A DNA stretch of 32,000 nucleotides from Nitrosomonas europaea (GTDB taxonomy: Bacteria; Pseudomonadota; Gammaproteobacteria; Burkholderiales; Nitrosomonadaceae): positions 1 through 32,000 of the forward strand of contig NZ_FUWK01000031.1 in NCBI RefSeq assembly GCF_900167395.1. Direction: 5' to 3'. Position 1 is the stretch's first letter. Each line of letters begins with the position of its first letter. The translations under genes and the position numbers were made by a program. Below the pieces are notes generated by a model. It worked only from the letters and a program-made list of their open reading frames with translations, was not told the origin of the DNA and made no database searches. Below, in pieces: positions 10,189 through 30,205 of this stretch.

Positions 10189-10289
10189 GGATAGGTTCTT
10201 TAAAACAAATTTTTGATAACCATGATCGAAATACCAACGATTCAATCATGACTAAAGAATCTGCTGAAGGCGGAGACAGCCTGCGGTGA

Positions 10290-11096
10290 TCAGGCCGCAG
10301 ACCGATTGAGAAAGTCAGTTTCGGAGTTGTGGCAATCACCCCGGGCAAGGGTTTCCACTGCCTTGCCGAAAGTGACCAGATCAGAACGCTCCAGCATGAC
10401 GCAGTTTTTGCCGGTACGCTGACAATAGCGTCTGACGGTGAAAAAATCCTCATGATTGATACAGTCAACCGGGCAAATGATGCTGTCTACACGAGCGAGC
10501 AGGGCAAGCAGGCATTCACTGTTATCCTGTGCACCGCCACGAAACACCATGAAATGTCCCCCGGCAGCTTCAATCAACTGATGGTAATTCGGATAGAGTG
10601 CAGCACGCCCACCGATACACAGGACAGACTGGCCCGCCAGATGATGACTGCTTTTCAGACGATCAATGGCCAGATAAGCATGATATTGATGCGGCAGGCC
10701 TGTTCTGATCCAGCGTAAATCCTCGTCATCAGATACTTGGGGGAGATGTGTGTCAGTACGGCTGTCGATCTGAACTTCAGTGTGAATAGAGTTTGCAGGT
10801 GAACGCCGGGTTGTATTCGCGGAAACAGTACCAGGCAAGGCCATACGGACCAGGTGATAAAGGTGCTTCAGCCGTGATTCCAGCTCTCGCCCCAGTTTCA
10901 GTGTGCGTTGTTTGTAGTGATGGAAAAGCGAATTGCAGAGGATTTCATTCTGATAGATTCCGGACAGTTTACCGGGATGGAGTTGCGCACCCTGATATGC
11001 CGGCTCCAGTACTGTTCTTTGGAAGAATTTCATGATCGATTCCGTATCAGAAAAAAGGCTGGCTTGCCCGGGAGGAGGGGGCTGGCTTGCCGTCAC
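10290..11096 (-). CDS. DUF2325-like domain protein (short paralog); start uncertain (11096 or 11033)
   Basis: The C-terminal block SVLCIGGRAALYPNYHQLIEAAGGHFMVFRGG...VDSIICPVDCINHEDFFTVRRYCQRTGKNCVMLERSDLVTF aligns with the C-terminus of the 15530-16849 product. It fits my recollection of Pfam DUF2325. Confidence 0.7.
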   Translation of the reverse strand: MTASQPPPPGQASLFSDTESIMKFFQRTVLEPAYQGAQLHPGKLSGIYQNEILCNSLFHHYKQRTLKLGRELESRLKHLYHLVRMALPGTVSANTTRRSPANSIHTEVQIDSRTDTHLPQVSDDEDLRWIRTGLPHQYHAYLAIDRLKSSHHLAGQSVLCIGGRAALYPNYHQLIEAAGGHFMVFRGGAQDNSECLLALLARVDSIICPVDCINHEDFFTVRRYCQRTGKNCVMLERSDLVTFGKAVETLARGDCHNSETDFLNRSAA

Positions 11097-13596: not shown

Positions 13597-13728
13597 AACA
13601 TTCCCCCAGAAAATAAATTATTTCCGGCTGACTGGCTCAATGCTGGCTGGCTGGTTAGAACAGGTCTTCAAATCAACCTGAATTTTTATTAGATTCGGGT
13701 AATGGCAACAAGCAGCCATTACAGATAC

Positions 13729-15450
13729 TTAACGACCAAGTGCCTCTTTGTGCAGATTGATCCCCTGACGAATTTGTTCATCTACCCATTGAGTAAATAA
13801 GGGGTGGGGGGCAAAACCCTCACCCAGTTCGAATTCCAGTCCGGCAAGGAACCGCTTTTCCGGCCCGACGGAAGTGGTACGGGTAGGGATGACGATCACC
13901 CTGTCACCTTGCTTGCTGGCTTCGGTGACCATGGCTCTTACTTTTTTGACCCAGGGTGCCCGTTTGTCCGGCCAATCCTCACGCCAGGTGGCAACTTTGA
14001 ATGCCTTGAATTTCTGGCCTCCCTGATCATGCATCTGGCTGGCAATGCTGTTGAGTTTCTCCAGCCATTCATCATTTTTCCGATCATCCTGAGTGCCGTG
14101 TGCGGTCAGAATCACTGTTTCTCTGGCCGGATCTTTGGAGAGTGCCAGTACGCGATCGAACAATGCACTGGCAAACAGGGGGTTGTCTTCGTAGCCGCCT
14201 GTCCAGATAACCGGCAGAGACGTCAGGATTCTGGGAACCGGTGTGCTGGATTTTGCATGTCCCCCATGCCCTCCATGGCTGCCGTGTCCACTGTTGTTGT
14301 CATGTATGTGGTCGTCCTGATTTTCGATATCCAGACCGGCCAGATAACCGATTTCATTGCGATAGGAGCTGCGGCTGGCAAAGGCGCTGACAACAATGGC
14401 TGCTTTTGCGCCGCGCTGTTCCAGTTTGTGCAGGGCACGTTCGATCGTGTATGGATCCGCCATGGAAAAGGCAAATTCGATTTTGTAGCGTTTCATCAAT
14501 GGCTCTACCGCTACGCGCAGATTTTCATTCCAGTGAAAGTCGGAGCCATGAGCAAACAGGATGACACCGGTATCTTCTTCGGCCAGAGGCAGATTGCGGC
14601 TGGCTTCGCGCTCCATCCACATGGCCAGATGCTGTGGTTCGATCTCGAAGTGATTGAGTGCTGCGTTTTCAGGCAACAGCCGTTCCAGCCGTGATTCGAG
14701 TGACATCATGCTGTCGTATTTGGGGCCGAGGGCGAATGCAATCACCTGATTTTTATTGTTTTTGGTAGCCGTGCCCAAAGATGACAATGCAGTGGCAAGC
14801 TGCTGTTTTGTCTTGTTGCCATAACTTTCCGGTTCTTCGTCTTTTTGTGCTTCCAGAAGAATCAGAGAGTTGATCGAACGAAAACTGACTCCCTGTGATG
14901 CCTGTTTGACAATGCGCATCCAGTCGTCATACATCGCCCGTCGGTGAGTATCGTTCTGTGCCCCGTAACCCACTACCAGCAGATGTTGCTGAGCGGTATG
15001 CTGCATGCCGCGCAAGCGGGTGGCGAGTGCCTCGACAGCGAAATAGCTTTCTCCGTAAGGTTTCGTGAAAGTCACAGGGATCGTCTGGTTTTCTTCCGTG
15101 ACCAGTGTGCGGATGAGCTGATAGCGCGGTTCTGCAGCAGAAATGAATAGTGGCAGTACGACGATACGGCCTATATTCTGCTGGTGCAGGCTGGCGAGAC
15201 CGGATTGCAGCGTTTGCCGGGTGCGCTCGTCAGTAACAAAGACCAGTGCAGCCGGGTGATTGGCTGAGAACGATGCAAAAGCATCACGGATTTCTTCATT
15301 ACCGACAAATCCCCGGTCAGCTGCAACTATCAGGAAACCGGTCTGATCGGCCGGTTTCAGTTCGGCCGCGTGCGCCGATCCTGCAAGCAGAGCGAACATC
15401 AATAAATAAAACCATGCAGCGGTTTGGATTGTTTTAATCCAGAAAAGCAT
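13729..15450 (-). CDS. secreted protein built from repeated CbiX/SirB-like (class II chelatase-like) modules with an internal His/Gly-rich loop
   Basis: GGAGGAAAT SD upstream of the ATG at 15450, giving the signal peptide MLFWIKTIQTAAWFYLLMFALLAGSAHA. Repeated strand-loop motifs IVAADRG / VVGYGAQ / ILFAHGS / ILTAHGT, each followed by VVLPLF / VVSAF / VIVIPT-type strands. His-rich HIHDNNSGHGSHGGHGGH. The family call is from memory. Confidence 0.65.
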   Translation of the reverse strand: MLFWIKTIQTAAWFYLLMFALLAGSAHAAELKPADQTGFLIVAADRGFVGNEEIRDAFASFSANHPAALVFVTDERTRQTLQSGLASLHQQNIGRIVVLPLFISAAEPRYQLIRTLVTEENQTIPVTFTKPYGESYFAVEALATRLRGMQHTAQQHLLVVGYGAQNDTHRRAMYDDWMRIVKQASQGVSFRSINSLILLEAQKDEEPESYGNKTKQQLATALSSLGTATKNNKNQVIAFALGPKYDSMMSLESRLERLLPENAALNHFEIEPQHLAMWMEREASRNLPLAEEDTGVILFAHGSDFHWNENLRVAVEPLMKRYKIEFAFSMADPYTIERALHKLEQRGAKAAIVVSAFASRSSYRNEIGYLAGLDIENQDDHIHDNNSGHGSHGGHGGHAKSSTPVPRILTSLPVIWTGGYEDNPLFASALFDRVLALSKDPARETVILTAHGTQDDRKNDEWLEKLNSIASQMHDQGGQKFKAFKVATWREDWPDKRAPWVKKVRAMVTEASKQGDRVIVIPTRTTSVGPEKRFLAGLEFELGEGFAPHPLFTQWVDEQIRQGINLHKEALGR

Positions 15451-15529
15451 ATTTCCTCCGGGTTGTGAATCGTAAAATGTATTGATGGATAAGGGTTCGT
15501 CTGTCATGCAGGCAGACTGCGCCGTAGTG

Positions 15530-16849
15530 TTATGTCGTGGTTTCAACTGTATCGACGGGAGAACTGTTGATACTGGCCTGGCCTGATGTGATTTTTGTCA
15601 GTGCTGCTGCAAAGCTGGAAACACCGGTACCCTTGAACAGCAGGCAGGGTTTATGCCCCAGCCGGCAAAGCCTTTTGACCTGATAGTAAGCGGCGTGACT
15701 GACGTAATCAGTCGGGCAGATCACTGCTGCAGCGCCATAGATCATTTCCGGCAAGCGCGAAAGTGCATCTTCCTGGCCGCCATCATGGTGTGATAATTTG
15801 AGGCCAAGCTGTCTGGCAAGTGTGCGGTATTGCGGCAGCAGCGTGGACCGGCCGCCTACGCACAGAATGCACTCGTAAGCAGCCATTTTCGTTTCGGTTG
15901 TATCCGCTGTTTCTGTATCTGTGGTGCTGCCAGAATTGAGGGTCAGCAGCAGATTTTCCAGTGTATCCCGCTCGACGCGAAGGGTATCGCGTTCGTGATA
16001 GAGCTCGGTCAGGTTGTGGCAGGCATTTTTGAGTGATTGCTTGAGATCATCGGCCTGTGCTGCTTTGATCTGCAGCTGCTCGTTTTCCACCGTTAGTTGC
16101 ATCAGGCGCTGACCCATTCGCAGTATGGCCTGGCCTGATTCCAGTGTTTCCAGCCGTTGGCGGGTGGTCTCGCTTTCTCGCCGGGATTGCTGCAACTGCT
16201 TGATTTCAGCCGCGGCCTGTTGCAGTTGCTGGCGCAGGCGCGATTCGGTCTGTACGTGCTTCTCTCTGATCTGTTCCAGTTGCCCGGCCAGTTCCTTCAG
16301 CATTTGTTCTGCCTGGTTGAGCCGGTGCTGCGTGGCTGACAGCTCGGCAACCGCTTCATGCATGTGCATGTGAACCCTGTCATGGATCTGCTCTCTGCCT
16401 TCGGAGCTGATCCGTTTGTGGGTGAGTGCTGCCCATAATGGACCGGCTATTCTTTCGTTGGTAAAACAGGTTTCCCAAAGCGCCAGCACCTCGCTGTCGG
16501 TTTTGGCGGCGTCGAACTGTTTAATGTGGCTTTCGTACAATCTGTCCAGATATTTATGAATCGTTTCCGATACGACGTTTCTGGAGGTTACGCGGCAGAC
16601 TGCTTCAACGTGCAGATCGTGCGCATTGTTTATCGAAGCTTTGAAATGAAAGCGTTTGGCAAAACGCTCGAGATCCGAGGCGGGCAGACAAAGGCCGATG
16701 ACAGGACAGTGATAGGTTCTGCTCAGTTCCCAGATTTTTGAACGCTTCACCGGGGGAGAAGGGGAATCGGTTACCATAATCTCGGGCGATCCATCTCCTG
16801 CTAATAAAGCATCGATTCCCGACTGTCGCAGAATGGCAGGTGCATGCAT
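15530..16849 (-). CDS. DUF2325-like domain protein (long paralog) with a central coiled coil
   Basis: GAGGAGA SD upstream of the ATG at 16849 (MHAPAILRQ). N-terminal HCPVIGLCLP block. Long Q/E/L/R-rich heptad region (LNQAEQMLKELAGQLEQIREKH...). C-terminal CILCVGGRSTLLPQYRTLARQLGLKLSHHDGG...VICPTDYVSHAAYYQVKRLCRLGHKPCLLFKGTGVSSF. Confidence 0.7.
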   Translation of the reverse strand: MHAPAILRQSGIDALLAGDGSPEIMVTDSPSPPVKRSKIWELSRTYHCPVIGLCLPASDLERFAKRFHFKASINNAHDLHVEAVCRVTSRNVVSETIHKYLDRLYESHIKQFDAAKTDSEVLALWETCFTNERIAGPLWAALTHKRISSEGREQIHDRVHMHMHEAVAELSATQHRLNQAEQMLKELAGQLEQIREKHVQTESRLRQQLQQAAAEIKQLQQSRRESETTRQRLETLESGQAILRMGQRLMQLTVENEQLQIKAAQADDLKQSLKNACHNLTELYHERDTLRVERDTLENLLLTLNSGSTTDTETADTTETKMAAYECILCVGGRSTLLPQYRTLARQLGLKLSHHDGGQEDALSRLPEMIYGAAAVICPTDYVSHAAYYQVKRLCRLGHKPCLLFKGTGVSSFAAALTKITSGQASINSSPVDTVETTT

Positions 16850-16915
16850 ACGGTATCTCCTCGTGGTGAAAATATCAGTCTGGATCAGACAGAATGGATT
16901 GCATTTAATACTAAT

Positions 16916-16934
16916 AATAACAATTATCATTAAC
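16916..16934 (-). promoter_or_regulatory. weaker Fur box candidate in the divergent region upstream of the long DUF2325-like gene
   Basis: AATAACAATTATCATTAAC matches 14/19 positions of the Fur consensus. It lies 67-85 nt upstream of the ATG at 16849. Confidence 0.4.
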
Positions 16935-17004
16935 GTAATCAATTGTGTTGTGTATTGCAGCCGATTCTGCATGAATCATGTGGAGCTTCATTTGTACGGC
17001 GAGG

Positions 17005-17021
17005 TGCGACAATTTGTCGCA
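17005..17021 (+). promoter_or_regulatory. 17-bp perfect palindromic operator TGCGACAA-T-TTGTCGCA (copy 1 of 3)
   Basis: Perfect 8-1-8 dyad immediately followed by TTTCCA (17022-27), a 17-nt spacer and TATTCT (17045-50). It ends 48 nt before the propeller gene ATG at 17070. Confidence 0.6.
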
Positions 17022-17069
17022 TTTCCATCCTTTTTGGAATCGGTTATTCTCCGAATTTTTGCGTGAACC

Positions 17070-18311
17070 ATGAAGAAGTCGACCTATTCTTTCCCCACGC
17101 TGGCCGGATTCTTTCTCACACTCGCTTCTGTGGTTGCAATCGCAGCCGGGCCAGGTACCGGCGACCCAACTCAGCAACCGTCTGTCATGCAAGCCTCAAA
17201 GTCCCCAAAGACCGCACTTGCGGTGGGAGTAACACTGGATCAGGAAGGGCAGTTGTGGCTGGCAAAAGTGATTGATCAGCGCTTGCTGGTTTCCAGATCA
17301 GAAGACGATGGCAAGCATTTTTCCGAATCAGTGACGGTTACTCCTGTGCCGGAAAACATAGGCAATGATGGCGAAAATCGTCCCAAGATCCAGGTGGCAC
17401 GTGATGGCACCGTGCTGGTCACCTGGACGGAGCTGCTGGCGGAAAAATATGCCGGAAATATAAAGTTCTCGCGTTCGACCGATTCAGGTCGGACGTTCTC
17501 AGAGCCAATCGTTCTGAACGATGATGGCCGTGTGACCAGTCACCGCTTCGATTCCCTGGCAATCGACGGAAAAGGAAGGGTGGTGGTGGCCTGGCTGGAT
17601 GCCAGAGATCGTGATGCAGCGAGGGAAAAAGGGGAGGAGTTCAAGGGGGTCTCACTCTACAGCAGTCAGTCGTTCGACAATGGCGCGCACTTTGAGCCAA
17701 ACCGGCAAATTCATCAGCATACCTGCGAATGCTGCCGGACTGCGCTTACCTGGACCAGCGAGGGGCCGGTCGTGCTGCTGCGAAATATTTTCGGCACCAA
17801 TACCCGTGATTTTGCCGTGGCCAGCCTGGATAAAGTGGAAGAAGGTGTCAGAAGAGTCACCCGCGATGAGTGGCAGATCGACGCCTGCCCGCACAACGGT
17901 GGCAGTCTTGCGACAGATGGCAGGGGGCAATTGCATCTGACCTGGTTCACCAGCGGCACCGCTGCACAGGGGCAGTTCTATAAACGGATCAGCGGCAACC
18001 AGGAATCGGAACCCATGGCGCTGGGTGATATGGATGCGCAGCCCAACCATGCTGCAGTGGTGGCGCATGGTGAAACCGTCATCCTCACCTGGCGCGAATT
18101 TGACGGAAACGTGTATTCCGCAAAGATGATGTTTTCGAATGACGGTGGCGAAACCTGGAGTGAGCCATGGCGCCTGATGTTGTCTGCCGGCGCAAACGAT
18201 TACCCGGTACCACTCATCAGTGACAGTAAAGCTCTGGTTGTATGGAATACCGAAAATGAGGGTTTGCGGGTTTTGTCCGTTGAAAGAGTCATCAACCGAT
18301 CCGACGGCTGA
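17070..18311 (+). CDS. secreted BNR/Asp-box repeat beta-propeller (sialidase-fold-like) protein with a conserved CxCC...CPH motif
   Basis: Signal peptide MKKSTYSFPTLAGFFLTLASVVAIAA. Asp-box motifs SEDDGKHF, STDSGRTF, SFDNGAHF, SNDGGETW. HTCECCR and DACPHNGG are conserved in the paralog at 28146-29384. Confidence 0.8.
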   Translation: MKKSTYSFPTLAGFFLTLASVVAIAAGPGTGDPTQQPSVMQASKSPKTALAVGVTLDQEGQLWLAKVIDQRLLVSRSEDDGKHFSESVTVTPVPENIGNDGENRPKIQVARDGTVLVTWTELLAEKYAGNIKFSRSTDSGRTFSEPIVLNDDGRVTSHRFDSLAIDGKGRVVVAWLDARDRDAAREKGEEFKGVSLYSSQSFDNGAHFEPNRQIHQHTCECCRTALTWTSEGPVVLLRNIFGTNTRDFAVASLDKVEEGVRRVTRDEWQIDACPHNGGSLATDGRGQLHLTWFTSGTAAQGQFYKRISGNQESEPMALGDMDAQPNHAAVVAHGETVILTWREFDGNVYSAKMMFSNDGGETWSEPWRLMLSAGANDYPVPLISDSKALVVWNTENEGLRVLSVERVINRSDG

Positions 18312-18419
18312 GAATCTTTAAAACAATAATAAGCAGCAGGCGGCTTATGACATGGATCGCAATGGCATCAGGCGCTGCTGCAAATACTAATTACCAATAA
18401 AAATCGAAAGGATCAGACC

Positions 18420-20972
18420 ATGAAGCAGTTCCCTCTGGCACTGATTGGCCTGCTTTGCGCCTCATCAGCCTGGGCAGCTCAAGATGTCGAACAACAGAAA
18501 CAGTTTTCCCGCAAAAATCTTTCAACACAGGCAGACAACAGTTCAGACGGAATCCGGGTATCAGGCGCAAACGGGGAGCACGCAGGGGAGCAGTTGGCGC
18601 AAGCGGCGGACGAACAGGTGCAAACCGGTAAATCGAGCAATAGTGACAACCTGAATGAACAGAAAGAGAAGGATAGTGGTGAGCCGGCTGGCCAGAATGA
18701 AACTGTTTTCAGGGAAATGGTAATTACAGGTGAAATAGAGCGGGATTCGCACTTTACTTCGCCTTCGATGCGCGTAACCCGGGCGCAGGTCGAACAGCAG
18801 AATGCGCAAACTACCGAAGAAGTGCTCAAATACATGCCCAGCCTGCAAATACGTCAGCGCTACGTGGGCGATCCGAATGGTGTGTTGGGGATTCGCGGAG
18901 CCGATATGTTTTCAACTGCGCGCAGCATGGTTTATGCCGATGGTCTGCCGTTGCACAACTTTCTGCAGGCTTCTTTCAATGGTGCGCCGCGCTGGTCGCT
19001 GGTCGGTCCTAACGAAATCGACTCGGTTGATGTCGTTTATGGCCCTTTCTCGGCCGAGTACAGCGGCAACTCGATAGGGGGCGTTGCCAATATCAGAACG
19101 CGCATGCCGCACAAGCAGGAATTTTACTTTGAAGGCAGCCTGTTCATTCAGCCCTACAAGAATTACGGGGAGGATAAAGGAACATTCATTGGTGACCGGC
19201 AGTATTTTTCCTACGGCAACAGGATTCAGGACAAGTTTACGGTGTTCCTGGCTTACAACCGGCTGGAGGCTCAGGGTCAGCCAATGTCTTATTTTATTGA
19301 TAATACCGGGTTGTCCAACGTGCCTGGAGGAACACCGGTGACGGGGGGTATCAGGACACCGGATACGCGCGGTACACCCAGTATCATTTATGGTGATACC
19401 GGTCCCGAAAAAGTGAATACTCACTTGTTCAAGGGTAAATTCGGGTACGACATCACTTCCGATCTGCAGGCGTTGTTTACCGTGGCGTATGAAGAGCGTA
19501 CCCGCAACCAGAACCATCCGAGCAACTACCTGTATACGGCGAACGGGGATTATTTCTGGGGAGGGAATGCGCCTACCTGTAATTCGGTTGCCACCTGTTC
19601 GACTCCGGGTAATGCTTCTCTGGATGGCACACGCTTCGATGTGGTGCGCAGTGGTTTCGGTGAAAGTCGTGACAAGCGTGAGACGCTGAATCTGGGTTTG
19701 TCGCTGCGCGGTGCGCTGACGCCCGACTGGGATGTCGATACCACATTCAGCTATTTCGATGTGTTGAAGGATATTCGTGCGACGGCGTTTTTCAATCATG
19801 CCGATCCGGGCAATACCGGTGCCGGGCAATTGCAGGATTTCCGCAAATTCAACTGGTGGAATTACGATCTCAAGCTGAGTACGCCCATGCTGCTGGGTTA
19901 CGACAAACTGTCGTTTCTGGCCGGATACCATTTTGACCAGTACAACCTCAGTTTCCGGCAATATAGCCTGACCAGTTATGAAGATCTGACCCGGGGTGCA
20001 TTGCAGGCCAACCGCAATAATGATGGCCGCACATCGACTCATGCGATCTTTGCCCAATCCATGTTCCGCTTCATGCCGGACTGGGATATTACCGCCGGTG
20101 TGCGTCAGGAATGGTGGGAAGCAAGCAAGGGAGTCGCCTCCAATGTGGCCGTGCCCGATCGCACCGAAACAGCCACTTCTCCGAAGGTTTCACTGGGGTA
20201 TGAGCCTGGACAGTGGAAATTCCGCTATTCCTTCGGGCGTGCGCACCGTTTCCCGGTGATTGCAGAGCTTTTTCAGTCACTTGGTACACCTACCAGTATT
20301 CTGGTTGCGAATGCGACGCTCAAACCTGAAAATGGCGTGCATCATAATTTTATGATGGAGTACGGGTTACCGAAGGGTTATGTTCGTGTCAACGTATTTC
20401 GGGATGACATCAAGGACGCCATCCGCCAGATCACTTCCGCCTCGGGAGCACTTACAACCAGCGCTTTCCAGAATATCGGTGAAGTTGGTACAACCGGTGT
20501 GGAGCTGATCTTCGAACAGCGAAATATTCTGGGCTCACGGTTCGATTTTATGTTCAACGGTACCTGGATGAACTCAAAAGTGGAAGACGGGCCGGTCGTG
20601 AGATTTACCGAATCAACCGGCGTGCCTGCCAACTACAGTCTGACCGGGAAACAGGTCATTCGTCTGCCACACTGGCGAGTCAATGTTTTCGGTACTTACC
20701 ATGTGACGGATGCCTGGGATGTTTCCCTGTCCGGCCGCTATACCAGCGATTCCTATAATGATCCTGATAACAGGGACTATAAGAACAACGTATTCGGTGC
20801 CCAGAGCGATTTCTTCTTCATGGATTTCAAGACCAGCTACCGGTATCGGTTCAACAACGGGCTGAAAAGCCGATTCTCATTCGGTATCAGCAACCTCAAC
20901 AACGACAAGGCCTGGGTATTTCATCCCTATCCGCAGCGTACCTATCTGCTCGAAGCTGCGTTCAGTTATTGA
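18420..20972 (+). CDS. TonB-dependent outer-membrane receptor with a long low-complexity N-terminal extension
   Basis: 850 aa. Signal peptide ending SSAWA. About 75 aa of Q/E/N/S/G-rich sequence, then plug motifs (VLKYMPSLQIRQR, GIRGA, VYADGLPL, VDVVYGPFSAEYSGNSIGGV) and a barrel ending AAFSY. Confidence 0.9.
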   Translation: MKQFPLALIGLLCASSAWAAQDVEQQKQFSRKNLSTQADNSSDGIRVSGANGEHAGEQLAQAADEQVQTGKSSNSDNLNEQKEKDSGEPAGQNETVFREMVITGEIERDSHFTSPSMRVTRAQVEQQNAQTTEEVLKYMPSLQIRQRYVGDPNGVLGIRGADMFSTARSMVYADGLPLHNFLQASFNGAPRWSLVGPNEIDSVDVVYGPFSAEYSGNSIGGVANIRTRMPHKQEFYFEGSLFIQPYKNYGEDKGTFIGDRQYFSYGNRIQDKFTVFLAYNRLEAQGQPMSYFIDNTGLSNVPGGTPVTGGIRTPDTRGTPSIIYGDTGPEKVNTHLFKGKFGYDITSDLQALFTVAYEERTRNQNHPSNYLYTANGDYFWGGNAPTCNSVATCSTPGNASLDGTRFDVVRSGFGESRDKRETLNLGLSLRGALTPDWDVDTTFSYFDVLKDIRATAFFNHADPGNTGAGQLQDFRKFNWWNYDLKLSTPMLLGYDKLSFLAGYHFDQYNLSFRQYSLTSYEDLTRGALQANRNNDGRTSTHAIFAQSMFRFMPDWDITAGVRQEWWEASKGVASNVAVPDRTETATSPKVSLGYEPGQWKFRYSFGRAHRFPVIAELFQSLGTPTSILVANATLKPENGVHHNFMMEYGLPKGYVRVNVFRDDIKDAIRQITSASGALTTSAFQNIGEVGTTGVELIFEQRNILGSRFDFMFNGTWMNSKVEDGPVVRFTESTGVPANYSLTGKQVIRLPHWRVNVFGTYHVTDAWDVSLSGRYTSDSYNDPDNRDYKNNVFGAQSDFFFMDFKTSYRYRFNNGLKSRFSFGISNLNNDKAWVFHPYPQRTYLLEAAFSY

Positions 20973-21184
20973 AGTACAGGTGTTTTTCTGCCCGATTATG
21001 TGATCTGAAACATCAGTAAAAATATCTGCAGAGTGTGCTTACGTAATTGAAGCTACCGAGCTGTTAATGTGGGTTCGGTAGGATGAGGTTAAAGTATTGT
21101 GTTCGTGATGCTATGATGAGCCGACCCGATGCCGAAGAAAACCCCCGAGGTGGCGTCGGGTCTGCTGGTTTCAGGAGGAAACAC

Positions 21185-21463
21185 ATGAATCGCGATCGGG
21201 TTTTGGCAGTATTGCGCCATAGTAAACCTATGTTGGCCAGTCGGTACGGTGTTCGTCGTTTGGCTTTGTTCGGCTCCACAGCACGTGATGACAGTGATGT
21301 TGATGTGCTGATGGTATTCGATGGTGTGGCAAGTGCAGCGCGTTATTTTGGCGTTCAGTTCCACCTGGAAGATGCATTGGGTTGCTCGGTAGATTTGGTA
21401 TCCGAGAAGGCGCTGCGGCCGGAGCTGCGTCCTTTCATCGAAAAAGAAGCGGTTTATGTTTGA
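21185..21463 (+). CDS. mntA: MntA-type nucleotidyltransferase (antitoxin of a HepT/MntA type VII TA pair)
   Basis: 92 aa. AGGAGGA SD. LALFGSTARDDSDVDVLMVFD (GS...DxD nucleotidyltransferase motif) and a C-terminal VDLVSEKALRPELRPFIEKEAVYV. ATGTTTGA start/stop overlap with the downstream DUF86 frame. Confidence 0.85.
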   Translation: MNRDRVLAVLRHSKPMLASRYGVRRLALFGSTARDDSDVDVLMVFDGVASAARYFGVQFHLEDALGCSVDLVSEKALRPELRPFIEKEAVYV

Positions 21464-21794
21464 GTTGGCCCGCGAGTGGCGTTTTTACCTGACTGACATG
21501 ATCAGTTTCGCCGAGAAGGTGCAGATTACTCGACCAGATACGCTTTGAAGCCAGTGGCCTGAATTACGACACTACGCTGCGCAATCTCGAATTGATCGGC
21601 GAGGCAGCGACCCATATTCCGGATGATATCCGGTCGGTACTCCCGATATTCCTTGGCGTATGATTATTGCTACGCGCAATCGGCTGATACACGGTTATCT
21701 CGGTATCGATAACGATACGATCTGGAGCATCATTCAGGATGAGATTCCCAAACTCTTGCGACAATTGACTGCCATGCTGGAGTCAATCAGATAA
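21456..21794 (+). pseudogene. hepT: HepT (DUF86/HEPN) toxin gene disrupted by two frameshifts
   Basis: Three consecutive frames carry the family sequence. (1) MFELAREWRFYLTDMISFAEKVQ, stop at 21546-48. (2) FEASGLNYDTTLRNLELIGEAATHIPDDIR, followed by a stop. (3) PWRMIIATRNRLIHGYLGIDNDTIWSIIQDEIPKLLRQLTAMLESIR, stop at 21792-94. The HEPN RxxxxH motif (RNRLIH) is still recognisable. Confidence 0.75.
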
Positions 21795-21981
21795 TCCTCT
21801 CCACCATAAAATCAACAAATCGAAATAGATCTCCCGTTTTTGTACTTTGAAGTGGAGGCCGAGTTTCAGTAAGGCAGCCTGTTAAAATAGGTATTAACAA
21901 CCTCCTGAAACTGTATCCTGATTCGTCCGGTTTCAGGCAGGCGCCGGTTTTTGACGTAAATAACATTCAAAGATATCAATC

Positions 21982-23286
21982 ATGACAGCTCAGCGGTATG
22001 TACGAGATTTGCTGAATTTCATCGACCAGAGTCCCAGTCCGTGGCATGCGGTGGCTACAATCGAGGCAACGCTCAGGGAATTTCGGTTCATCCGGCTGGA
22101 AGAAACAGACAAGTGGGCGTTGCAGGCGGGTGGACGGTACTATGTAGTACGGGATGATTCCTCCATTGTTTTGTTTATCCTGGGGAGCAAGGCACCTGCC
22201 GAATCGGGTTTCAGGATTGTCGGGGCGCATACCGACTCGCCCGGGTTGCGGATCAGGCCGAACGGGGTAAGCGCCAGCGATGGATTGGCCCGGCTCAAGG
22301 TCGAAATTTATGGCGGGCCGATTCTGGCGACGTTTACTGACCGGGATCTGAGCCTGGCCGGGCGCATCAGTTATACCGATGACGGTGGACAGGTTGCGCA
22401 CAAACGGATTTGTTTTGATCAGCCTCTGCTGCGTTTGCCGAATCTGGCGATTCATATGAACCGGGGAGTCAATGAGGACGGGCTGAAGCTGCATAAACAG
22501 AATGAGTTGCCGCTGTTGTTTGCACAACTGACCGACGATCAGTTGCCACAGCCTTATTTTCTGGCGTTGCTGGAACAGAAGGCCGGTATCCCCGCCACAC
22601 AAATCCTGTCCTGGGATCTCGCGGTTTATGACACCCAGAAAGGGACACTCTGGGGAGCAAATCAGGAGTTTTACACCAACAGTCAGATCGATAATCTGGC
22701 CAGTTGCCATGCCGGACTGCAGGCGGTACTGGACGATACCATTCTGGATCATGCCGAAAGTACGCTGGTATGCGCATTTTTCGATCATGAAGAAATCGGT
22801 AGTGAAAGTCATATTGGTGCCGGAGGCAGTTTCCTGTCCGATGTATTGCAACGCATCAATCTGGCGGTCTCACGAGATCCGGAGGATGGTGCGCGTGCGT
22901 TTGCCCGCAGTTTTCTGATCAGTGCAGATATGGCGCATGCCTATCATCCCAACTTTCCTTCATCCTACGATGCGGATCATAAAGTCTTCGTGAACCGGGG
23001 TCCGGTCATCAAATTCAACGCCAACCGTCGCTATAGCTCCGAAAGTATTTCTGCTGCGCATTTCATGCGCTGGTGTGAAGCAGCCGGTGTACCTTACCAG
23101 CGTTATTCACACCGCTCCGATCTACCCTGCGGGAGTACCATCGGGCCGATTGCTTCGGCAAAGCTCGGCATACGCAGTATCGATATCGGCTGCCCGATGT
23201 GGGCGATGCACAGTATCCGGGAAAGCGCCGGTGTTCAGGACCATGAGTACATCATCAAGGCACTGAAGCAGTTTTTCAGTAGCTGA
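21982..23286 (+). CDS. apeB: M18 family aminopeptidase (aspartyl aminopeptidase-like)
   Basis: 434 aa. N-terminal LLNFIDQSPSPWHAV, then IVGAHTDSPGLRIRP, FFDHEEIGS and ISADMAHAYHPN, which are characteristic M18 metal-ligand blocks. Confidence 0.9.
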   Translation: MTAQRYVRDLLNFIDQSPSPWHAVATIEATLREFRFIRLEETDKWALQAGGRYYVVRDDSSIVLFILGSKAPAESGFRIVGAHTDSPGLRIRPNGVSASDGLARLKVEIYGGPILATFTDRDLSLAGRISYTDDGGQVAHKRICFDQPLLRLPNLAIHMNRGVNEDGLKLHKQNELPLLFAQLTDDQLPQPYFLALLEQKAGIPATQILSWDLAVYDTQKGTLWGANQEFYTNSQIDNLASCHAGLQAVLDDTILDHAESTLVCAFFDHEEIGSESHIGAGGSFLSDVLQRINLAVSRDPEDGARAFARSFLISADMAHAYHPNFPSSYDADHKVFVNRGPVIKFNANRRYSSESISAAHFMRWCEAAGVPYQRYSHRSDLPCGSTIGPIASAKLGIRSIDIGCPMWAMHSIRESAGVQDHEYIIKALKQFFSS

Positions 23287-23447
23287 GAAACTTCTGAAAA
23301 ACTACCTGCGTTGCCATTTTTGCGTTAAAAATCGGTATCAAAATGCTCATTTATTATATATAAACTCCGCTTTTTCGCCGATTTTTGCCTTGAACTGACT
23401 ACCTCGCCGACGTTTTTCAGAGGTTCCCTGAAACCTCTGATTAAATC
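23287..23447. repeat. MITE/REP-like element related to 6449-6718
   Basis: GAAACTTCTGAAAAAC (23287-23302) against GTTTTTCAGAGGTTCC (23412-23427) matches 14/16 as an inverted repeat. The terminal CTCTGATTAAATC (23435-23447) is the exact reverse complement of GATTTAATCAGAG (6701-6713). CGATTTTTGCC resembles CGATTTTGCC at 6672-6681. Confidence 0.4.
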
Positions 23448-23486
23448 AATACTTCAAAATGCGTTTTATCCGCTGTTAGCCGGTGA

Positions 23487-23503
23487 TGCGACAATTTGTC
23501 ACA
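23487..23503 (+). promoter_or_regulatory. 17-bp palindromic operator (copy 2 of 3; one mismatch, TGCGACAATTTGTCACA)
   Basis: Immediately followed by TTGTTA (23504-09), a 17-nt spacer and TATGAT (23527-32), upstream of the TBDR gene. Confidence 0.6.
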
Positions 23504-23647
23504 TTGTTATGCCCTTTCTCCCGCTTTATGATGGGTGCCCTGCAGTAACTGCAATCACTTTAAGGGTTTCATAACAGGGATAAAAACATGAAGGGAACAA
23601 AAAGGTTTGAGCAATCGCGACAACATCTGCTCAAGGCTGGGGATGCC

Positions 23648-25711
23648 ATGATCAGAAAACCGCTGGCGGTTGCGATGGTGGGTGTGCTGGCGGGCATGAC
23701 ATCGGTATGGGCGCAGGCAGAAAGTAAAAAGGAACCGGTGCAACTGGAAACAATCGAGGTCGTGGCATCCGGGCAGGGGTCGCTTACGGTTCCAACGCTG
23801 GTTGAGGCGCAGCATGAAATGCGCAAAATCCCGGGCGGAGCAAATATCATCGACAGCGAATCTTATGCCAATGGCCGGGGTTCGACACTGCAGGATGCGC
23901 TGGGGTATTCGCCGGGAGTGTTTGTTCAATCCCGTTTCGGTGCCGAGGAAGCGCGTCTGTCAATTCGCGGTTCCGGCATCCAGCGTTTCTTTCACTTGCG
24001 CGGCATCAAGATTCTGCAGGATGGTTCGCGGGTGAATCTGGCTGATGGTGGCGCGGATTTTCAGGTGATCGAGCCACTGGCAGCACGCTATATCGAAGTT
24101 TATCGGGGTGCCAATGCATTGCAGTATGGATCGACCACGCTGGGTGGTGCGATCAATTTCGTCACGCCCACCGGCTACGATGCTGAACGTTTCCGCGCAC
24201 GTGGTGAGGCAGGCAGCTTTGGTTATAACCGCCTGATGCTTTCTTCCGGTGGTGTGCATGGTTCTCTGGATTATTTTGCCAGTGTTTCCCGCTACAGTCA
24301 GGATGGTTTCCGTGACTGGTCGGAGCAGGAAAACTGGCGCATGTTCAGCAATGCCGGGTATCGAATCACGCCCGATCTGGAAACCCGTTTTTACCTGACC
24401 TATACCAAAACCAATTCACAATTGCCAGGCGAGCTGACCAAAGCAGAACTGAAAGACAACCCGAAGCAGGCAAATTTCTTTAACAGCAATATAGCGCGGT
24501 ACAAGCGGGATTTTGATTTGATCCGCGTGGCCAATCGTACTGTGATGAAATTGGGTGAGGCCCAGCAACTGGAATTTTCCGCATTCTATGCGCATAAAAA
24601 AGTATGGCACCCGATTTATGTGGTGATGGAGCAGCCTTCGCATGATTACGGCCTTGGGTTGCGCTATATCAACGAAATGCCGATTGCCGGCTGGCGTAAC
24701 CGGTTTGTGGCCGGTTTCGAGCCAAGCTGGGGCAAGGTGATGGATAACCAGTTCGTTAATATCAATGGTGAGGCTGGTCCGCGAATTCACAAATATGATC
24801 AGGATGTCAGCAGTTATACGGTGTATGGAGAGAATCAGTTTTACCTGCTGCCGGAACTTGCACTGGTGGTGGGTGCCCAGTACACCAACATGACACTCAA
24901 ACAGAAAGATCTGCATACGGGTGATCCGCGGCAGAAGAAAAACTACGAACGCTTCACCCCCAAGGCAGGACTCATCTATGACCTGAATCCGGAAATTCAA
25001 TTCTTCACCAACGTCAGTACCAGTTTCGAGCCACCCAGTTTTTCCGAGCTGGCCAGTTGGCAGGCGACACCGGTACTGGCCAGTGCCCAGCGCGCACTGA
25101 CCTTCGAAGTGGGAAGCCGGGGCCGTTTTGGTATCGCCGAATGGGATGTTGCATTTTATCGCTCACATGTGCGCAATGAATTGCTTGCCCGCGTGGATCC
25201 AGTGTCCCGTTTCCCGATAGGAATGGTCAATGCGGATAAAACCGTGCATCAGGGAGTGGAATTGGGTCTGGATATGGAACTGGCAAAAATGCTTTACCTG
25301 CGCCAGATGTATACATTCAGCGATTTCAAGTTTGATGGCGACCCGCTTTTCGGAAACAACCAGCTGGCCGGTATTCCGCGCCATTTCTACAAGGCGGAGC
25401 TGCTCTATCGCCATCCTGCCGGCTATTATGCCGGTCCGAACGTGGAATGGTCACCCGAGAAGTATTATGTGGATCATGCCAATACGTTGTCTGTCGATAC
25501 CTATGCGCTGCTTGGATTCAAGCTGGGTAAGCGCAACAAAACCGGCTTTTCCTGGTTTGTCGAGGGGCGTAACCTGACTAACCAGAAATATGCGGCGACG
25601 GTTTCCGTAACCGACATCGCGGGGGTTGGTGCCTTTGGTGGCGCAAACTCGGCCTTGTTCTTCCCGGGAGATGGCCGCTCCTTCTTTGCTGGTCTGGAGT
25701 ATCGGATGTAG
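23648..25711 (+). CDS. TonB-dependent outer-membrane receptor (tandem paralog 1); alternative upstream in-frame ATG at 23588
   Basis: GGGGA SD upstream of the ATG at 23648, giving the signal peptide MIRKPLAVAMVGVLAGMTSVWAQA. Plug motifs LETIEVV, LSIRGSG, RGIKILQDG, EVYRGANALQYGSTTLGGAINFV. Barrel ends GLEYRM. Confidence 0.9.
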   Translation: MIRKPLAVAMVGVLAGMTSVWAQAESKKEPVQLETIEVVASGQGSLTVPTLVEAQHEMRKIPGGANIIDSESYANGRGSTLQDALGYSPGVFVQSRFGAEEARLSIRGSGIQRFFHLRGIKILQDGSRVNLADGGADFQVIEPLAARYIEVYRGANALQYGSTTLGGAINFVTPTGYDAERFRARGEAGSFGYNRLMLSSGGVHGSLDYFASVSRYSQDGFRDWSEQENWRMFSNAGYRITPDLETRFYLTYTKTNSQLPGELTKAELKDNPKQANFFNSNIARYKRDFDLIRVANRTVMKLGEAQQLEFSAFYAHKKVWHPIYVVMEQPSHDYGLGLRYINEMPIAGWRNRFVAGFEPSWGKVMDNQFVNINGEAGPRIHKYDQDVSSYTVYGENQFYLLPELALVVGAQYTNMTLKQKDLHTGDPRQKKNYERFTPKAGLIYDLNPEIQFFTNVSTSFEPPSFSELASWQATPVLASAQRALTFEVGSRGRFGIAEWDVAFYRSHVRNELLARVDPVSRFPIGMVNADKTVHQGVELGLDMELAKMLYLRQMYTFSDFKFDGDPLFGNNQLAGIPRHFYKAELLYRHPAGYYAGPNVEWSPEKYYVDHANTLSVDTYALLGFKLGKRNKTGFSWFVEGRNLTNQKYAATVSVTDIAGVGAFGGANSALFFPGDGRSFFAGLEYRM

Positions 25712-25731
25712 GCGCATAAAATAGATCAAGG

Positions 25732-25759
25732 CGGCATACCCCGGTAATGAGGTATGCCG
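25732..25759 (+). terminator. possible terminator hairpin after TBDR paralog 1 (no U tract)
   Basis: CGGCATACC-N10-GGTATGCCG begins 20 nt after the stop codon. No T run follows it. Confidence 0.3.
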
Positions 25760-25847
25760 GGAAACCGAATAAAATGGTATTCCCTAGCTTTTTTTGCTGA
25801 TCCGAATTTCGAATTAACCCGTTAATCCGTTTGTTTTTTCTTCAAGG

Positions 25848-25864
25848 TGCGACAATTTGTCGCA
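25848..25864 (+). promoter_or_regulatory. 17-bp perfect palindromic operator TGCGACAA-T-TTGTCGCA (copy 3 of 3)
   Basis: Immediately followed by TTGTGA (25865-70), a 17-nt spacer and TAAGAT (25888-93), upstream of TBDR paralog 2. Confidence 0.6.
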
Positions 25865-25998
25865 TTGTGATGTCATTCTGCCAGGCTTAAGATTGGCAGC
25901 GTGCAGTAATTGCCAATACTAATAATTCCAGAGGGAAGAAAATGAAGGAAAAGAAGGTTAAACAAGCTGGGCTTTATGAGTCATCGGGTGGAGAAATC

Positions 25999-28068: not shown

Positions 28069-28145
28069 AAATAATGATGGGAGTGGTGAGCTCATAAACA
28101 AGCCATCTTCAGGTTTGATTGGCGATTAATTTCAAGGGATCGACG

Positions 28146-30003: not shown

Positions 30004-30205
30004 TCCACCAGGCAAATCGTATCTGTTTGCTACTGCACAGGAACATGTGAGCAACCCGTGAGGCATGGTCGAGCCGCATGATCAGTTCCGGTAGTAACAG
30101 CTTGCTCTTTGGGGTTCATGCTTGTAATCTTTTTAACAGGATTGATCCTGCTCTTGTTGTGAGCAGGTAGTATTTGCCCTGAAATCTGATCACGCAGGAG
30201 GTATC

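Follow-up and report, generated by a model that had tools for sequence, protein, structure and literature searches.

A conserved outer-membrane import module joining a TonB-dependent receptor to a cysteine-bearing β-propeller, with candidate RegA-type operators, in Nitrosomonas europaea

β-Propeller partners of TonB-dependent transporters are known from Bacteroidota, where BtuG handles B12 and cobamides and XusB handles siderophores such as ferric enterobactin; both are surface lipoproteins without a cysteine cluster. The initial annotation of the DNA studied here knew of no described partner of a TonB-dependent receptor (TBDR) that is a propeller with a cysteine cluster, and our literature search found no publication on the propeller-TBDR module either, but the Bacteroidota proteins show that propeller partners lacking such a cluster do exist. 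In the periplasm, the reductases TlpA and ResA/CcmG maintain client cysteines that bind metal or heme in the reduced state, with the reference motifs CVPC in TlpA and CEPC in ResA, and DsbL is a dedicated folding catalyst for a β-propeller, the arylsulfate sulfotransferase ASST. For copper, CrtA with its PepSY_TM partner (CrpH) is a TonB-dependent system of Bordetella and Pseudomonas (PMC12914433, PMC13038864).

The window, by which we mean the whole stretch analysed, is 32,000 nt of N. europaea DNA (NZ_FUWK01000031.1, positions 1 to 32,000), and its features are as follows.

17005-17021, no strand assigned: candidate RegA/PrrA-type box 1, TGCGACAATTTGTCGCA, upstream of BNR1, 49 nt before its ATG
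17022-17050, forward: tentative promoter directly 3' of box 1, -35 TTTCCA, 17-nt spacer, -10 TATTCT
17070-18311, forward: BNR1, 413 aa, Sec-exported Asp-box β-propeller with the invariant C-x-C-C…C-P-H motifs and a His/Arg set
18312-18419, forward: BNR1-TBDR1 spacer, 108 nt, with an imperfect hairpin at 18333-18381 that has no T-run
18420-20972, forward: TBDR1, 850-aa TonB-dependent receptor, Plug 62.8 bits and barrel 139.5 bits (Pfam)
23487-23503, no strand assigned: candidate RegA/PrrA-type box 2, TGCGACAATTTGTCACA, upstream of TBDR2, one mismatch to box 1
23588-25711, forward: TBDR2, 707-aa receptor with its own box upstream, 76% identical to TBDR3
25848-25864, no strand assigned: candidate RegA/PrrA-type box 3, TGCGACAATTTGTCGCA, upstream of TBDR3
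25942-28068, forward: TBDR3, 708-aa receptor, likely true start 25999
28146-29384, forward: BNR2, 412 aa, BNR1 paralogue with Cys/His motifs identical in kind
29381-29878, forward: thioredoxin (Trx)-fold gene, exported thiol-disulfide oxidoreductase with CTYC; 4-nt overlap with the BNR2 stop

The initial annotation had described a signal-peptide protein with four Asp-boxes, 108 nt upstream of an 850-aa receptor and behind a palindromic operator; its reading frames and gap are exact, and the operator is box 1. It had also seen the pairing recur at 25999-29384, and a paralogous pair does lie at 25942 (or 25999)-29384, BNR2 being 46% identical to BNR1 (E 7e-120) with a start backed by the N-termini of homologues, but the order is reversed, receptor first, and TBDR1 and TBDR3 show no relation beyond the family fold. 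TBDR1 begins with a low-complexity extension of ~95 aa and carries the Pfam domains Plug and TonB_dep_Rec_b-barrel; no NCBIfam model reaches its own cut-off on it and no solved structure is a close relative, while the nearest solved relative of TBDR3 is PqqU/YncD at 137 bits. The spacer hairpin has a ΔG of -23.6 kcal/mol (z -1.74), and neither a RegA box nor a canonical terminator was found in the 108 nt. The flanking genes in the window are a heme receptor gene and chelatase-like and DUF2325 genes, with a Fur-like box. The Trx-fold gene, the frequent TonB-ExbBD and the identity of the operator were absent from the initial annotation.

Gene neighbourhoods across genomes place this pairing beyond chance. 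The propeller is encoded in at least 578 species (Proteobacteria, Methylomirabilis and Nitrospiria), mostly obligate or facultative chemolithoautotrophs and many of them sulfur oxidisers, and 73 of 87 propeller genes at 80 genome loci have an adjacent TBDR on the same strand, the remainder being mostly at contig ends. Three layouts occur (BNR-TBDR, BNR-Trx-TBDR and TBDR-BNR-Trx), the propeller pairs with two unrelated receptor clades, 4-nt gene overlaps are frequent, and the module is completed downstream by TonB at 19 loci, ExbB at 17 and ExbD at 11; no conserved inner-membrane importer was found in the module operons. This synteny bears out the earlier proposal that propeller and receptor work as a unit, and the module is a widely conserved, unstudied outer-membrane import operon, present in two copies in the Nitrosomonas window.

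The N-terminus of BNR1 is Sec-type (MKKSTYSFPTLAGFFLTLASVVAIAA), with neither a twin-arginine motif nor a lipobox, and only 8 of 116 propeller relatives have a lipobox-like motif. The Sec signal without a lipobox makes the periplasm the most likely location, one of the two placements (periplasmic or surface-exposed) first allowed. Four Asp-boxes (S77-D79-G81-F84, S136-D138-G140-F143, S201-D203-G205-F208 and S356-D358-G360-W363) accompany two cysteine motifs, H217-x-C219-E-C221-C222 and C273-P274-H275, both of which are kept in all 240 close homologues and in 100 of 116 full-length distant representatives. Invariant in 149 sequences are H158, D177, R179, C219, C221, C222, R238, R246, D247, R262, C273, P274, H275 and H289. 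The AF2 model (pLDDT 90.2, pTM 0.86) probably has seven blades, not six, and the structures with the best TM-scores (5mum, 5mul, 5mvh, 4irt, 5uam and 7esk) belong to what we take to be seven-bladed families. The cysteines lie beside invariant His in loops ahead of inner strands, and strand topology suggests that the Cys, His and Arg residues would cluster on the top face of the propeller. Together with a dedicated thiol-disulfide oxidoreductase and the co-regulated genes, these invariant residues suggest that the propeller may capture a metal or ligand.

The usual partner of the propeller is a TlpA/ResA-like Trx-fold gene. The product encoded in the window just reaches Pfam AhpC-TSA (26.4 bits; cut-off 26). 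A profile of the family finds ResA (E 7.7e-8) along with TlpA, StoA and DsbF, the nearest solved relatives being the extracytoplasmic reductases ResA, StoA and TlpA. Among the best 150 cluster representatives, at least 21 have the propeller fused to a C-terminal homologue of this window product (E down to 2e-38) with the CxxC kept. These fused forms mostly carry CPPC or CAPC, and the stand-alone partners mostly have the dipeptides x-H, x-Y or x-N.

Boxes occur at three places in the window (six strand matches) against 0.14 expected, a count that none of 100 shuffles reached. The box differs by one mismatch from the PrrA consensus YSCGGC(5)GWCRMA and by one from the RegR consensus GNGRCRTTNNGNCGC, as both are quoted in PMC5506826, and it is kept upstream of 46 of 75 modules in many genera. 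Putative promoters, read by consensus match only, have the same geometry at boxes 2 and 3 (-35 TTGTTA/TTGTGA, -10 TATGAT/TAAGAT) as at box 1, and the putative -35 element directly adjoins the box, an arrangement reported for RegA sites (PMC5506826). In 14 metagenome contigs the box precedes a regB-like kinase with GGxxNPF, with a regA-like regulator downstream, and at seven genome loci a regB/regA-like two-component system stands beside the module; in L041, L046 and L081, the loci examined, the two diverge with the box between them. Neither an operator resembling those of Zur or NikR nor a cobalamin riboswitch was found at the module. Judged by its sequence, the operator is a RegA/PrrA-type box, a type that points to control by redox state and not by a classical metal-sensor repressor.

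We consider the module architecture and its RegA-type control, taken alone, likely to be right. The full proposal of a RegA-controlled import module with copper as its cargo is more tentative, and we rate it a little short of evenly balanced, with copper the most likely metal. More broadly, the module probably provides respiratory enzymes with a redox metal, be it copper or another one. Its parts would be an outer-membrane receptor, a soluble periplasmic β-propeller with four cysteines and a His/Arg set, and a TlpA/ResA-like periplasmic oxidoreductase, joined in many genomes by the module's own TonB-ExbB-ExbD. Promoters abutting a high-quality RegA/PrrA/RoxR-family site would couple it to respiratory-chain redox state, not to Fur or Zur: once electrons no longer reach the terminal oxidases freely, RegB would phosphorylate RegA, which would activate the module. 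The receptor would bring chelated metal into the periplasm, where the propeller may bind it in its top-face pocket, arginines gripping the anionic chelator while the Cys/His cluster accepts the metal and perhaps reduces it. The Trx-fold partner would keep the propeller cysteines in, or return them to, the thiol state. Enzymes or stores that face the periplasm could then receive the metal, with no dedicated importer in the inner membrane. If copper is the cargo, the module would feed heme-copper oxidases, NosZ and NirK and, in nitrifiers, ammonia monooxygenase.

Copper is favoured by genes behind the same box: a Csp1 copper-storage gene (TIGR04401, 152 bits; L073 and L138, 37% identical to each other), NosL-domain/Met-rich outer-membrane protein fusions (L091 and L098, 26% identical) and a DUF1775/YcnI-like protein. 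The last, a PepSY_TM protein and a probable NosZ N-terminus (read by eye) lie behind the box or adjoin the module. RegA binds copper (PMC9147068) and nos and cop genes are under RegR control (PMC4064962). Against copper, the copper-linked neighbours are each confined to a few loci, up-regulation at high copper has been reported for Csp proteins (PMC7558416), a poor fit to an uptake regulon, and neither receptor clade has a conserved Cys or Met, hence no OprC-type copper site. The neighbours in the window itself are iron and heme genes, which speaks against copper.

A real rival, though an unlikely one, is that the receptor imports a ferric chelate. Propeller thiols, which the Trx-like protein would recycle, would then reduce Fe(III) and release periplasmic Fe(II) for uptake of the Feo type, serving chemolithoautotrophs in their very high need for heme and iron. 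In Methylomonas DH-1, deleting regA lowers expression of a TBDR, tonB-exbBD and feo to 3-23% of the wild-type level, interpreted as RegA-dependent iron uptake, but that TBDR operon is of PiuC/peptidase type without a propeller, and ChIP showed no RegA binding there (PMC13274454). The flanking genes and Fur-like box of the window would fit iron, as would a Trx-domain fusion acting as a catalytic reductase and the many conserved Arg of both receptor clades, which, with the lack of Cys and Met, are expected of anionic-chelate receptors. However, at the module promoters there is a RegA-type box but no Fur box, and it is the divergent operon that has the Fur-like site; the module has no linked feo, ABC-importer or siderophore genes, and its co-regulated accessory genes are copper-type (Csp1, NosL, DUF1775), not iron-type.

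We give a rather poor chance to other cargos bound or reduced by the propeller, be it another thiophilic metal (Zn, Ni or Co), PQQ or a quinone-like redox cofactor, or a sulfur or disulfide compound. Cys4/His sites bind Zn and Ni too, many hosts oxidise sulfur, and TBDR2 and TBDR3 have the PQQ transporters YncD/PqqU as nearest solved relatives (E 5.5e-39), but their 155 bits to NCBIfam PqqU fall far under the 1200-bit cut-off, and PqqU has no relation to the TBDR1-type receptors with which the same propeller pairs. The missing Zur- and NikR-like operators and cobalamin riboswitch count against such cargos, and no linked genes point to them.

The propeller might instead bind the imported substrate, or act on it as an enzyme, without redox chemistry, with the Trx-like protein as its dedicated folding catalyst. 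The C-x-H/Y-C dipeptides of the stand-alone partners are typical of isomerases and oxidases, so the propeller cysteines could be structural disulfides; x-H, x-Y and x-N are found in DsbC, DsbG and PDI, four cysteines could make two disulfides in an oxidising periplasm, and DsbL with ASST is a precedent. We find this improbable, as the Trx fold family is nearest the reductive ResA/TlpA branch, its fused forms are mainly CPPC or CAPC, cysteines in loops beside an invariant His are atypical of staples, and covalent fusion across many lineages suggests repeated catalytic interaction, not one-off folding.

Databases mis-annotate the propeller as sialidase family protein, exo-alpha-sialidase or glycoside hydrolase; as a sialidase it is not credible. 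That it is a true sialidase-like hydrolase or lyase processing a glycan that the receptor brings in, after the manner of SusC-type polysaccharide loci, has next to no probability in our view: BNR_2 is just over threshold (33.4 bits against 31.4), Foldseek matches the GH33, GH145, PL25 and PL42 propellers and R104-P105 aligns, in one weak alignment, with the sialidase FRIP-motif Arg, but the best PDB sequence match (E 0.002) rests on Asp-boxes only, the fold matches are generic (TM 0.44-0.58, identity 9-16%), the module holds no sugar transporter or catabolic genes, its hosts are mainly chemolithoautotrophs, and we know of no GH33 enzyme with the Cys and His features and thiol oxidoreductase partner that define this family. 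By the Pfam, AlphaFold and Foldseek checks proposed at the outset, the propeller is not recognisable as a glycosidase.

Set against known systems, the propeller shares with GH33 and the BNR_2 superfamily its Asp-box architecture, and differs in having no significant sequence match beyond the Asp-boxes, probably seven blades (by strand count in the model) rather than six, and a pocket whose conserved residues are Cys, His and Arg in place of an Arg triad plus Tyr, Glu and Asp. Like BtuG and XusB, it is encoded beside the transporter and would handle the receptor's cargo, but those proteins cap the transporter from the cell surface and have no thioredoxin partner, and neither structure is among the 50 Foldseek matches listed. 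The partner resembles TlpA with ScoI/CoxB, and ResA/CcmG with apocytochrome, in being an exported CxxC Trx-fold protein genetically tied to one cysteine-bearing periplasmic client; here, however, a β-propeller stands in place of the Sco or cytochrome domain as client, overlaps of 4 nt and complete fusions link the two genes far more closely, and the CxxC dipeptides differ from those of TlpA and ResA.

With RegB/RegA (PrrBA, RegSR, ActSR, RoxSR) the system shares, besides the operator, an adjacent kinase with six transmembrane helices and the GGxxNPF quinone motif, a 180-aa regulator with receiver and Fis-type HTH, and targets that include cytochromes, nosZ-like genes and copper genes. The kinase (240-255 against 350 bits) and regulator (192-210 against 250 bits) score below the NCBIfam equivalog cut-offs and so form a β/γ-proteobacterial branch; the box, a near-perfect 8-1-8 palindrome, is far less degenerate than α-proteobacterial RegA sites, and a TonB import module with a propeller is not among the RegA targets in the literature found. 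Also close are the copper transporters OprC/NosA, MbnT-MbnE and CrtA-PepSY_TM, likewise outer-membrane receptors, sometimes with their own TonB-ExbBD, without a Fur box and proposed to supply respiratory oxidases or NosZ; as with CrtA, receptors lacking conserved Cys/Met would take chelated, not naked, metal. Those are named copper importers, whereas copper transport here is putative, and our receptors have no close sequence relation to solved TBDTs and no OprC-type CxxxM/HxM site. Control by a RegA-type box would replace the CruR leader peptide of copper TBDT systems. Where they have PepSY_TM or a periplasmic binding protein as partner, this module has a soluble cysteine propeller with a thiol oxidoreductase.

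The initial annotation had described a secreted Asp-box propeller gene directly followed by a TonB-dependent receptor (TBDR) gene on the same strand, and the reading frames exist as described, 108 nt apart. It had also noted that the pair recurs in the window; a second pair is indeed present, with its gene order reversed and the receptor coming first. The genes of the two loci are as follows (BNR, propeller; Trx-like, exported thioredoxin-fold protein).

17070-18311, + strand: BNR1, 413 aa, Sec-type signal peptide, Asp-boxes, Pfam BNR_2
18420-20972, + strand: TBDR1, 850 aa, plug and barrel by Pfam
23588-25711, + strand: TBDR2, a copy of TBDR3 (76% identical)
25942/25999-28068, + strand: TBDR3, with BNR2 coming next
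28146-29384, + strand: BNR2, 46% identical to BNR1
29381-29878, + strand: Trx-like gene, 165 aa, exported, CTYC motif, overlapping the BNR2 stop by 4 nt

All three receptors carry Plug and TonB_dep_Rec_b-barrel domains well past the Pfam cut-offs, which identifies them as TonB-dependent receptors, and TBDR1 and TBDR3 are unrelated beyond their shared fold. The hairpin in the BNR1-TBDR1 spacer is unremarkable (z -1.74) and has no T-run, and is therefore not a canonical terminator. The best homologues are from Nitrosomonas, at 99% in a metagenomic Nitrosomonas and 83-88% in N. eutropha Nm57 and Nitrosomonas sp. HPC101.

The association of propeller and receptor is genuine and far from random. 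Among 1.84 billion cluster representatives, a search found 240 relatives of the propeller at E <= 1e-30, and a scan of one genome per species found it encoded in at least 578 species, among them Nitrosomonadaceae, Thiobacillus and other Hydrogenophilales, Rhodocyclales, Sulfuricella, Gallionella, Chromatiales, Halorhodospira, Methylomirabilis and Nitrospiria; the hosts are mostly chemolithoautotrophs or denitrifiers. Loss of synteny in other genomes had been named as grounds for giving up the pairing, and the synteny is kept: in the 80 loci retrieved, a same-strand TBDR adjoins 73 of 87 propeller genes, and of the 14 others ten lie at contig ends, the rest being tandem propeller-propeller-TBDR arrangements or frameshifted. 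The layout is propeller-TBDR in Nitrosomonadaceae, propeller-Trx-TBDR in Thiobacillus and Rhodocyclales, and TBDR-propeller-Trx across a broad distribution; 4-nt overlaps between module genes are common, and TonB, ExbB and ExbD genes are frequently found downstream. Two unrelated receptor clades pair with one propeller family. The proposed functional coupling of propeller and receptor is supported by this conserved pairing, and is extended here by a thiol oxidoreductase partner and RegA-type control.

Several loci depart from the simple arrangement. In N. eutropha Nm57, BNR1-TBDR1 is followed directly by an operator box, TBDR3, BNR2 and the Trx-like gene; relative to that locus the window has about 4.9 kb extra (20973-25840), apparently from a recent insertion together with a tandem duplication, containing a toxin-antitoxin remnant, an M18 aminopeptidase and TBDR2 with a copied box and promoter. 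The remnant (21083-21795) comprises an MntA-like nucleotidyltransferase antitoxin (NTP_transf_2) and then an apparently frameshifted HepT-like toxin, with five stop codons in the frame tried over 21464-21795. Three Nitrosospira/Nitrosomonadaceae loci (L016, L017, L023) have tandem propellers, with a BNR2-like gene immediately 5' of BNR1-TBDR1 and separate boxes, and L023 holds four boxes inside 6 kb. Two Pseudomonadales MAGs (L002 and L003, 10001-11688) carry a propeller-Trx pair with no adjoining TBDR, amid polysaccharide and sulfotransferase genes; this pair may work with an unlinked receptor, or have a second role.

The propeller belongs to the Pfam BNR_2 / Asp-box β-propeller superfamily, BNR2 scoring 45.0 bits and BNR1 33.4 bits, just past the cut-off of 31.4. 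The four Asp-boxes reported for BNR1 read as canonical, and its signal peptide has neither a lipobox nor a twin-arginine motif. An AlphaFold (AF2) model built from 149 sequences is confident (pLDDT 90.2, pTM 0.86) and all-β; judging from the number of strands, the propeller probably has seven blades. BNR1 carries the cysteine motifs H-x-C-E-C-C-R (217-223) and A-C-P-H (272-275), and both C-x-C-C and C-P-H are kept in 240 of 240 close homologues and in 100 of 116 full-length distant representatives. Invariant across the 149 sequences are H158, D177, R179, C219, C221, C222, R238, R246, D247, R262, C273, P274, H275 and H289, with R104, Y304, R342 and E343 nearly so. By strand topology, most of these residues appear to sit in loops before inner strands or after second strands, on the 'top' face. 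The 'top' face of propellers is where active sites lie.

Might the propeller be a glycosidase? Candidate positions for the GH33 catalytic set (R246, R262, R342, Y304 and E343) are conserved, and in one weak alignment R104-P105 falls opposite the Arg of the sialidase FRIP motif. Against this, the best PDB match to GH33 has E 0.012 with a single sequence and E 0.002 with a profile, aligned through the Asp-boxes only, and Foldseek gives TM 0.44-0.49 at 12-16% identity to GH33 entries, too low to count as significant similarity; its matches overall are generic propellers (GH145, PL25, PL42, GH33; TM 0.44-0.58, identity 9-16%). Judged by its sequence, the propeller is no recognisable sialidase, and the sialidase or glycoside hydrolase labels on genes of at least 578 species are very probably wrong.

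The thioredoxin-fold partner is part of the module's machinery. A Trx-like gene comes next after the propeller in 54 of 87 cases, and of the best 150 representatives no fewer than 21 are propeller-Trx fusions, whose C-terminal domain retains the CxxC and is homologous to the 165-aa protein of the window (phmmer E down to 2e-38). The window's protein scores 26.4 bits for AhpC-TSA against a Pfam cut-off of 26, with PDB matches to YkuV, DsbF, ResA and TlpA. It has a signal peptide. Residues C52, C55 and P126 are invariant across 20 family members, whose profile matches extracytoplasmic reductases (ResA at E 7.7e-8, also StoA, TlpA and DsbF/MPT53); with its predicted exported thioredoxin fold, CxxC and cis-Pro region, the protein can be classed as TlpA/ResA/DsbE-like. 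The CxxC dipeptide varies, with x-H, x-Y or x-N in the stand-alone genes and PP or AP predominating in the fusions, and for this reason the redox direction of the partner is not readable from sequence.

Control of the module points to a redox regulator. The palindrome TGCGACAATTTGTCGCA, with core GCGAC-N5-GTCGC, occurs three times in the window, 5' of BNR1 (17005-17021), TBDR2 (23487-23503) and TBDR3 (25848-25864), against 0.14 matches expected by chance. Each copy directly precedes a weak -35 hexamer, a 17-nt spacer and a -10 hexamer, which we tentatively read as promoters. The boxes at 17005 and 25848 have one mismatch each to the published PrrA (YSCGGC(5)GWCRMA) and RegR (GNGRCRTTNNGNCGC) motifs (quoted in PMC5506826), and 80 of 85 orthologous boxes depart from the PrrA motif at one position or none. 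In 46 of 75 modules a box lies roughly 50-100 nt 5' of the leading gene; the 1.06 Mb of flanking DNA contains just 39 further sites. There is an exact match to the loose RegA motif SSGNVRDNHYSNCSS as well, but with 30 matches in the window this motif is so degenerate as to be uninformative. Exact PrrA-motif matches at 4269 and 22289 are non-palindromic and inside coding regions, and we take them as chance. The exact operator 17-mer was not found in the literature.

A metagenome scan with a degenerate 17-mer, for which many chance matches are expected (phage terminase contigs, for example), was counted only where targets recurred in unrelated contigs. In 14 contigs the box stands 5' of a regB-like histidine kinase of about 430 aa with six transmembrane helices and the quinone-site motif GGxxNPF, with a 180-aa response regulator coming after it; the best NCBIfam matches of the two are ActS/PrrB/RegB and ActR/PrrA/RegA, under the equivalog cut-offs. 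A regBA-like system immediately adjoins the module in seven genome loci from different lineages, and in the three loci examined (L041, L046, L081) the two point away from each other on either side of a box-bearing intergenic region; within the 32-kb window there are no regBA genes. We conclude that the module is a predicted member of a RegBA/RoxSR-type redox regulon. RegA sites are reported to lie 5' of the -35 element (PMC5506826), the position of the boxes here, and we infer that the box acts in activation and not repression.

Other operator identities were set aside: the 7-1-7 boxes of Fur, Zur, PerR, Nur and Mur, the CopY box (TACAnnTGTA), the CusR box (TGACAAnnTTGTCA; wrong spacing) and MerR-type sites, a MerR-family gene standing beside the module in L054 only. 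That gene (L054 5143-5616, - strand), in one gammaproteobacterial MAG, is divergent from the module and encodes a metal-sensor-like regulator with a Cys-rich C-terminus, whose best NCBIfam matches (ZntR, CadR, CueR) are all under cut-off. Scanning the window for Rfam families and tRNAs gave no match, and the lack of an Rfam match means no riboswitch.

What the receptor imports is best answered, in our view, by copper, a reading we place slightly short of an even chance. Genes with links to copper share the box or adjoin the module. Tat-exported Csp1 copper-storage proteins (L073 2340-2819 and L138 2660-3085; TIGR04401, 152 bits against a cut-off of 100), 37% identical to each other, stand behind the box and each adjoin a TBDR-propeller pair; also behind the box are a NosL domain fused to a Met-rich outer-membrane barrel (L091 772-2274 and L098 9768-11081; 26% identical) and a DUF1775/YcnI-like protein (L157 451-1005). 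A PepSY_TM protein, cytochromes c and c' and, by eye, a probable NosZ N-terminus occur behind the box or beside the module in unrelated contigs. Also in favour of copper are the reductase-client logic, as in TlpA-ScoI, and the lack of any conserved inner-membrane importer in the module operon among the loci compared. RegA has been reported to bind copper (PMC9147068), and nos and cop genes are under RegR control (PMC4064962).

Several observations weigh against copper. Neither the 40 TBDR1-type nor the 32 TBDR3-type receptors that adjoin propellers show a Cys or Met column with 90% conservation or more, copper-linked genes appear in few loci only, and high copper reportedly induces Csp proteins (PMC7558416). 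Heme and iron genes neighbour the module in the window, and RegA-dependent TonB and Feo expression in Methylomonas has been read as iron uptake (PMC13274454). Iron is an unlikely cargo in our estimate; the TBDR2 and TBDR3 promoters have no Fur box and so do not look like Fur-regulated uptake. Cargoes other than copper or iron, together with other readings, take up what probability these two leave; the PqqU transporter family was rejected at 155 bits against an NCBIfam cut-off of 1200. The RegA-dependent TBDR operon of Methylomonas has PiuC-type neighbours and no propeller, and was unbound by RegA in ChIP (PMC13274454); with those neighbours in place of a propeller, we do not consider it a counterpart.

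Between its signal peptide and plug, TBDR1 has a low-complexity extension of about 95 aa rich in Q, E, S and N (residues 20-115; window 18420-18720), in which Pfam found no FecA-type signalling domain. Outer-membrane β-barrels of about 330 aa, some with an N-terminal CxxCxC and none with a Pfam or NCBIfam match, adjoin propeller genes in seven loci (L016 464-1480, L017 5434-6453, L023 5288-6304, L064 10518-11480, L065 4500-5483, L078 7279-8424 and L182 901-1935). Most have a RegA-type box 5' of the barrel gene, which in L182 is co-directional with the propeller gene, and the barrel may be an optional fourth component of the module.

Elsewhere in the window, an operon divergent from BNR1 (11503-16972, - strand) encodes three proteins: a heme-type TBDR (TIGR01785, 551 bits), one of 605 aa with CbiX/chelatase-like domains, and a DUF2325 protein of 480 aa, whose annotated start is probably too far upstream. 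The sole Fur-like site (about 16907-16935; AT-rich, about 13/19 to consensus by eye) lies at the 5' end of this operon, to which it belongs, 70-100 nt 5' of the first box. The - strand at 9193-11096, upstream of the heme receptor, encodes a 350-aa multicopper oxidase of two domains and another DUF2325 protein, of 268 aa, with no RegA-type box near them. Fatty-acid oxidation genes unrelated to the module flank the region: an acyl-CoA synthetase and a FadE-type dehydrogenase at 2248-6482 (- strand), and at 30179-32000 (+ strand) a FadB-like gene, 83.6% identical to that of N. eutropha, which runs off the window end.

We speculate that the module gives Gram-negative chemolithoautotrophs a widespread pathway for acquiring copper that has so far gone unrecognised. 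Taken jointly, the steps of this proposal are in our view possible and on the doubtful side. A RegB/RegA-type sensor would take respiratory-chain performance as a read-out of copper sufficiency and switch on the TonB-dependent importer. The imported cargo would be stripped and reduced by the propeller, a new class of periplasmic metallochaperone or reductase with a seven-bladed Asp-box fold and a Cys4/His site; a thioredoxin-fold partner of its own would recharge the propeller. The propeller would then hand Cu(I) to Csp1 and to NosL/Sco-type chaperones, with oxidases, NosZ and ammonia or methane monooxygenases as final recipients. If true, TonB-dependent transport in Proteobacteria would gain a new type of periplasmic partner, a propeller active through its thiols and served by a reductase of its own, and a new regulatory logic in which metal import is placed under a respiratory-chain redox sensor. 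For nitrifiers, denitrifiers and oxidisers of sulfur or iron, the module supplies concrete genes, residues and a promoter with which to test how copper gets to cuproenzymes of the periplasm and membrane; the answer bears on nitrification rates and N2O emission because NosZ and AMO need copper.

The pairing had been put forward as novel, and we found no published description of the module in the literature. Known systems resemble it in part. BtuG and XusB of Bacteroidota are alike only in the idea of a propeller beside a TonB-dependent transporter (TBDT); the signal peptides of BNR1 and BNR2 have no Cys, and a lipobox-like motif is seen in 8 of 116 representatives. The copper TBDT CrtA has a similar role, but its partner and regulation differ from those of the module, which we therefore do not place in that family: CrtA-type operons are defined by a downstream PepSY_TM gene and an upstream cruR leader (PMC12914433), whereas a PepSY_TM gene is not conserved in the module and no small leader ORF lies between box and gene in the window. 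OprC/NosA, also copper TBDTs, are likewise similar in role, although their CxxxM…HxM Cys/Met/His site is not conserved in the module receptors, and the NCBIfam TonB-copper model gives just 26 bits where its cut-off is 472. The pairing of a thioredoxin-fold protein with its client in the module is like that of TlpA and ScoI.
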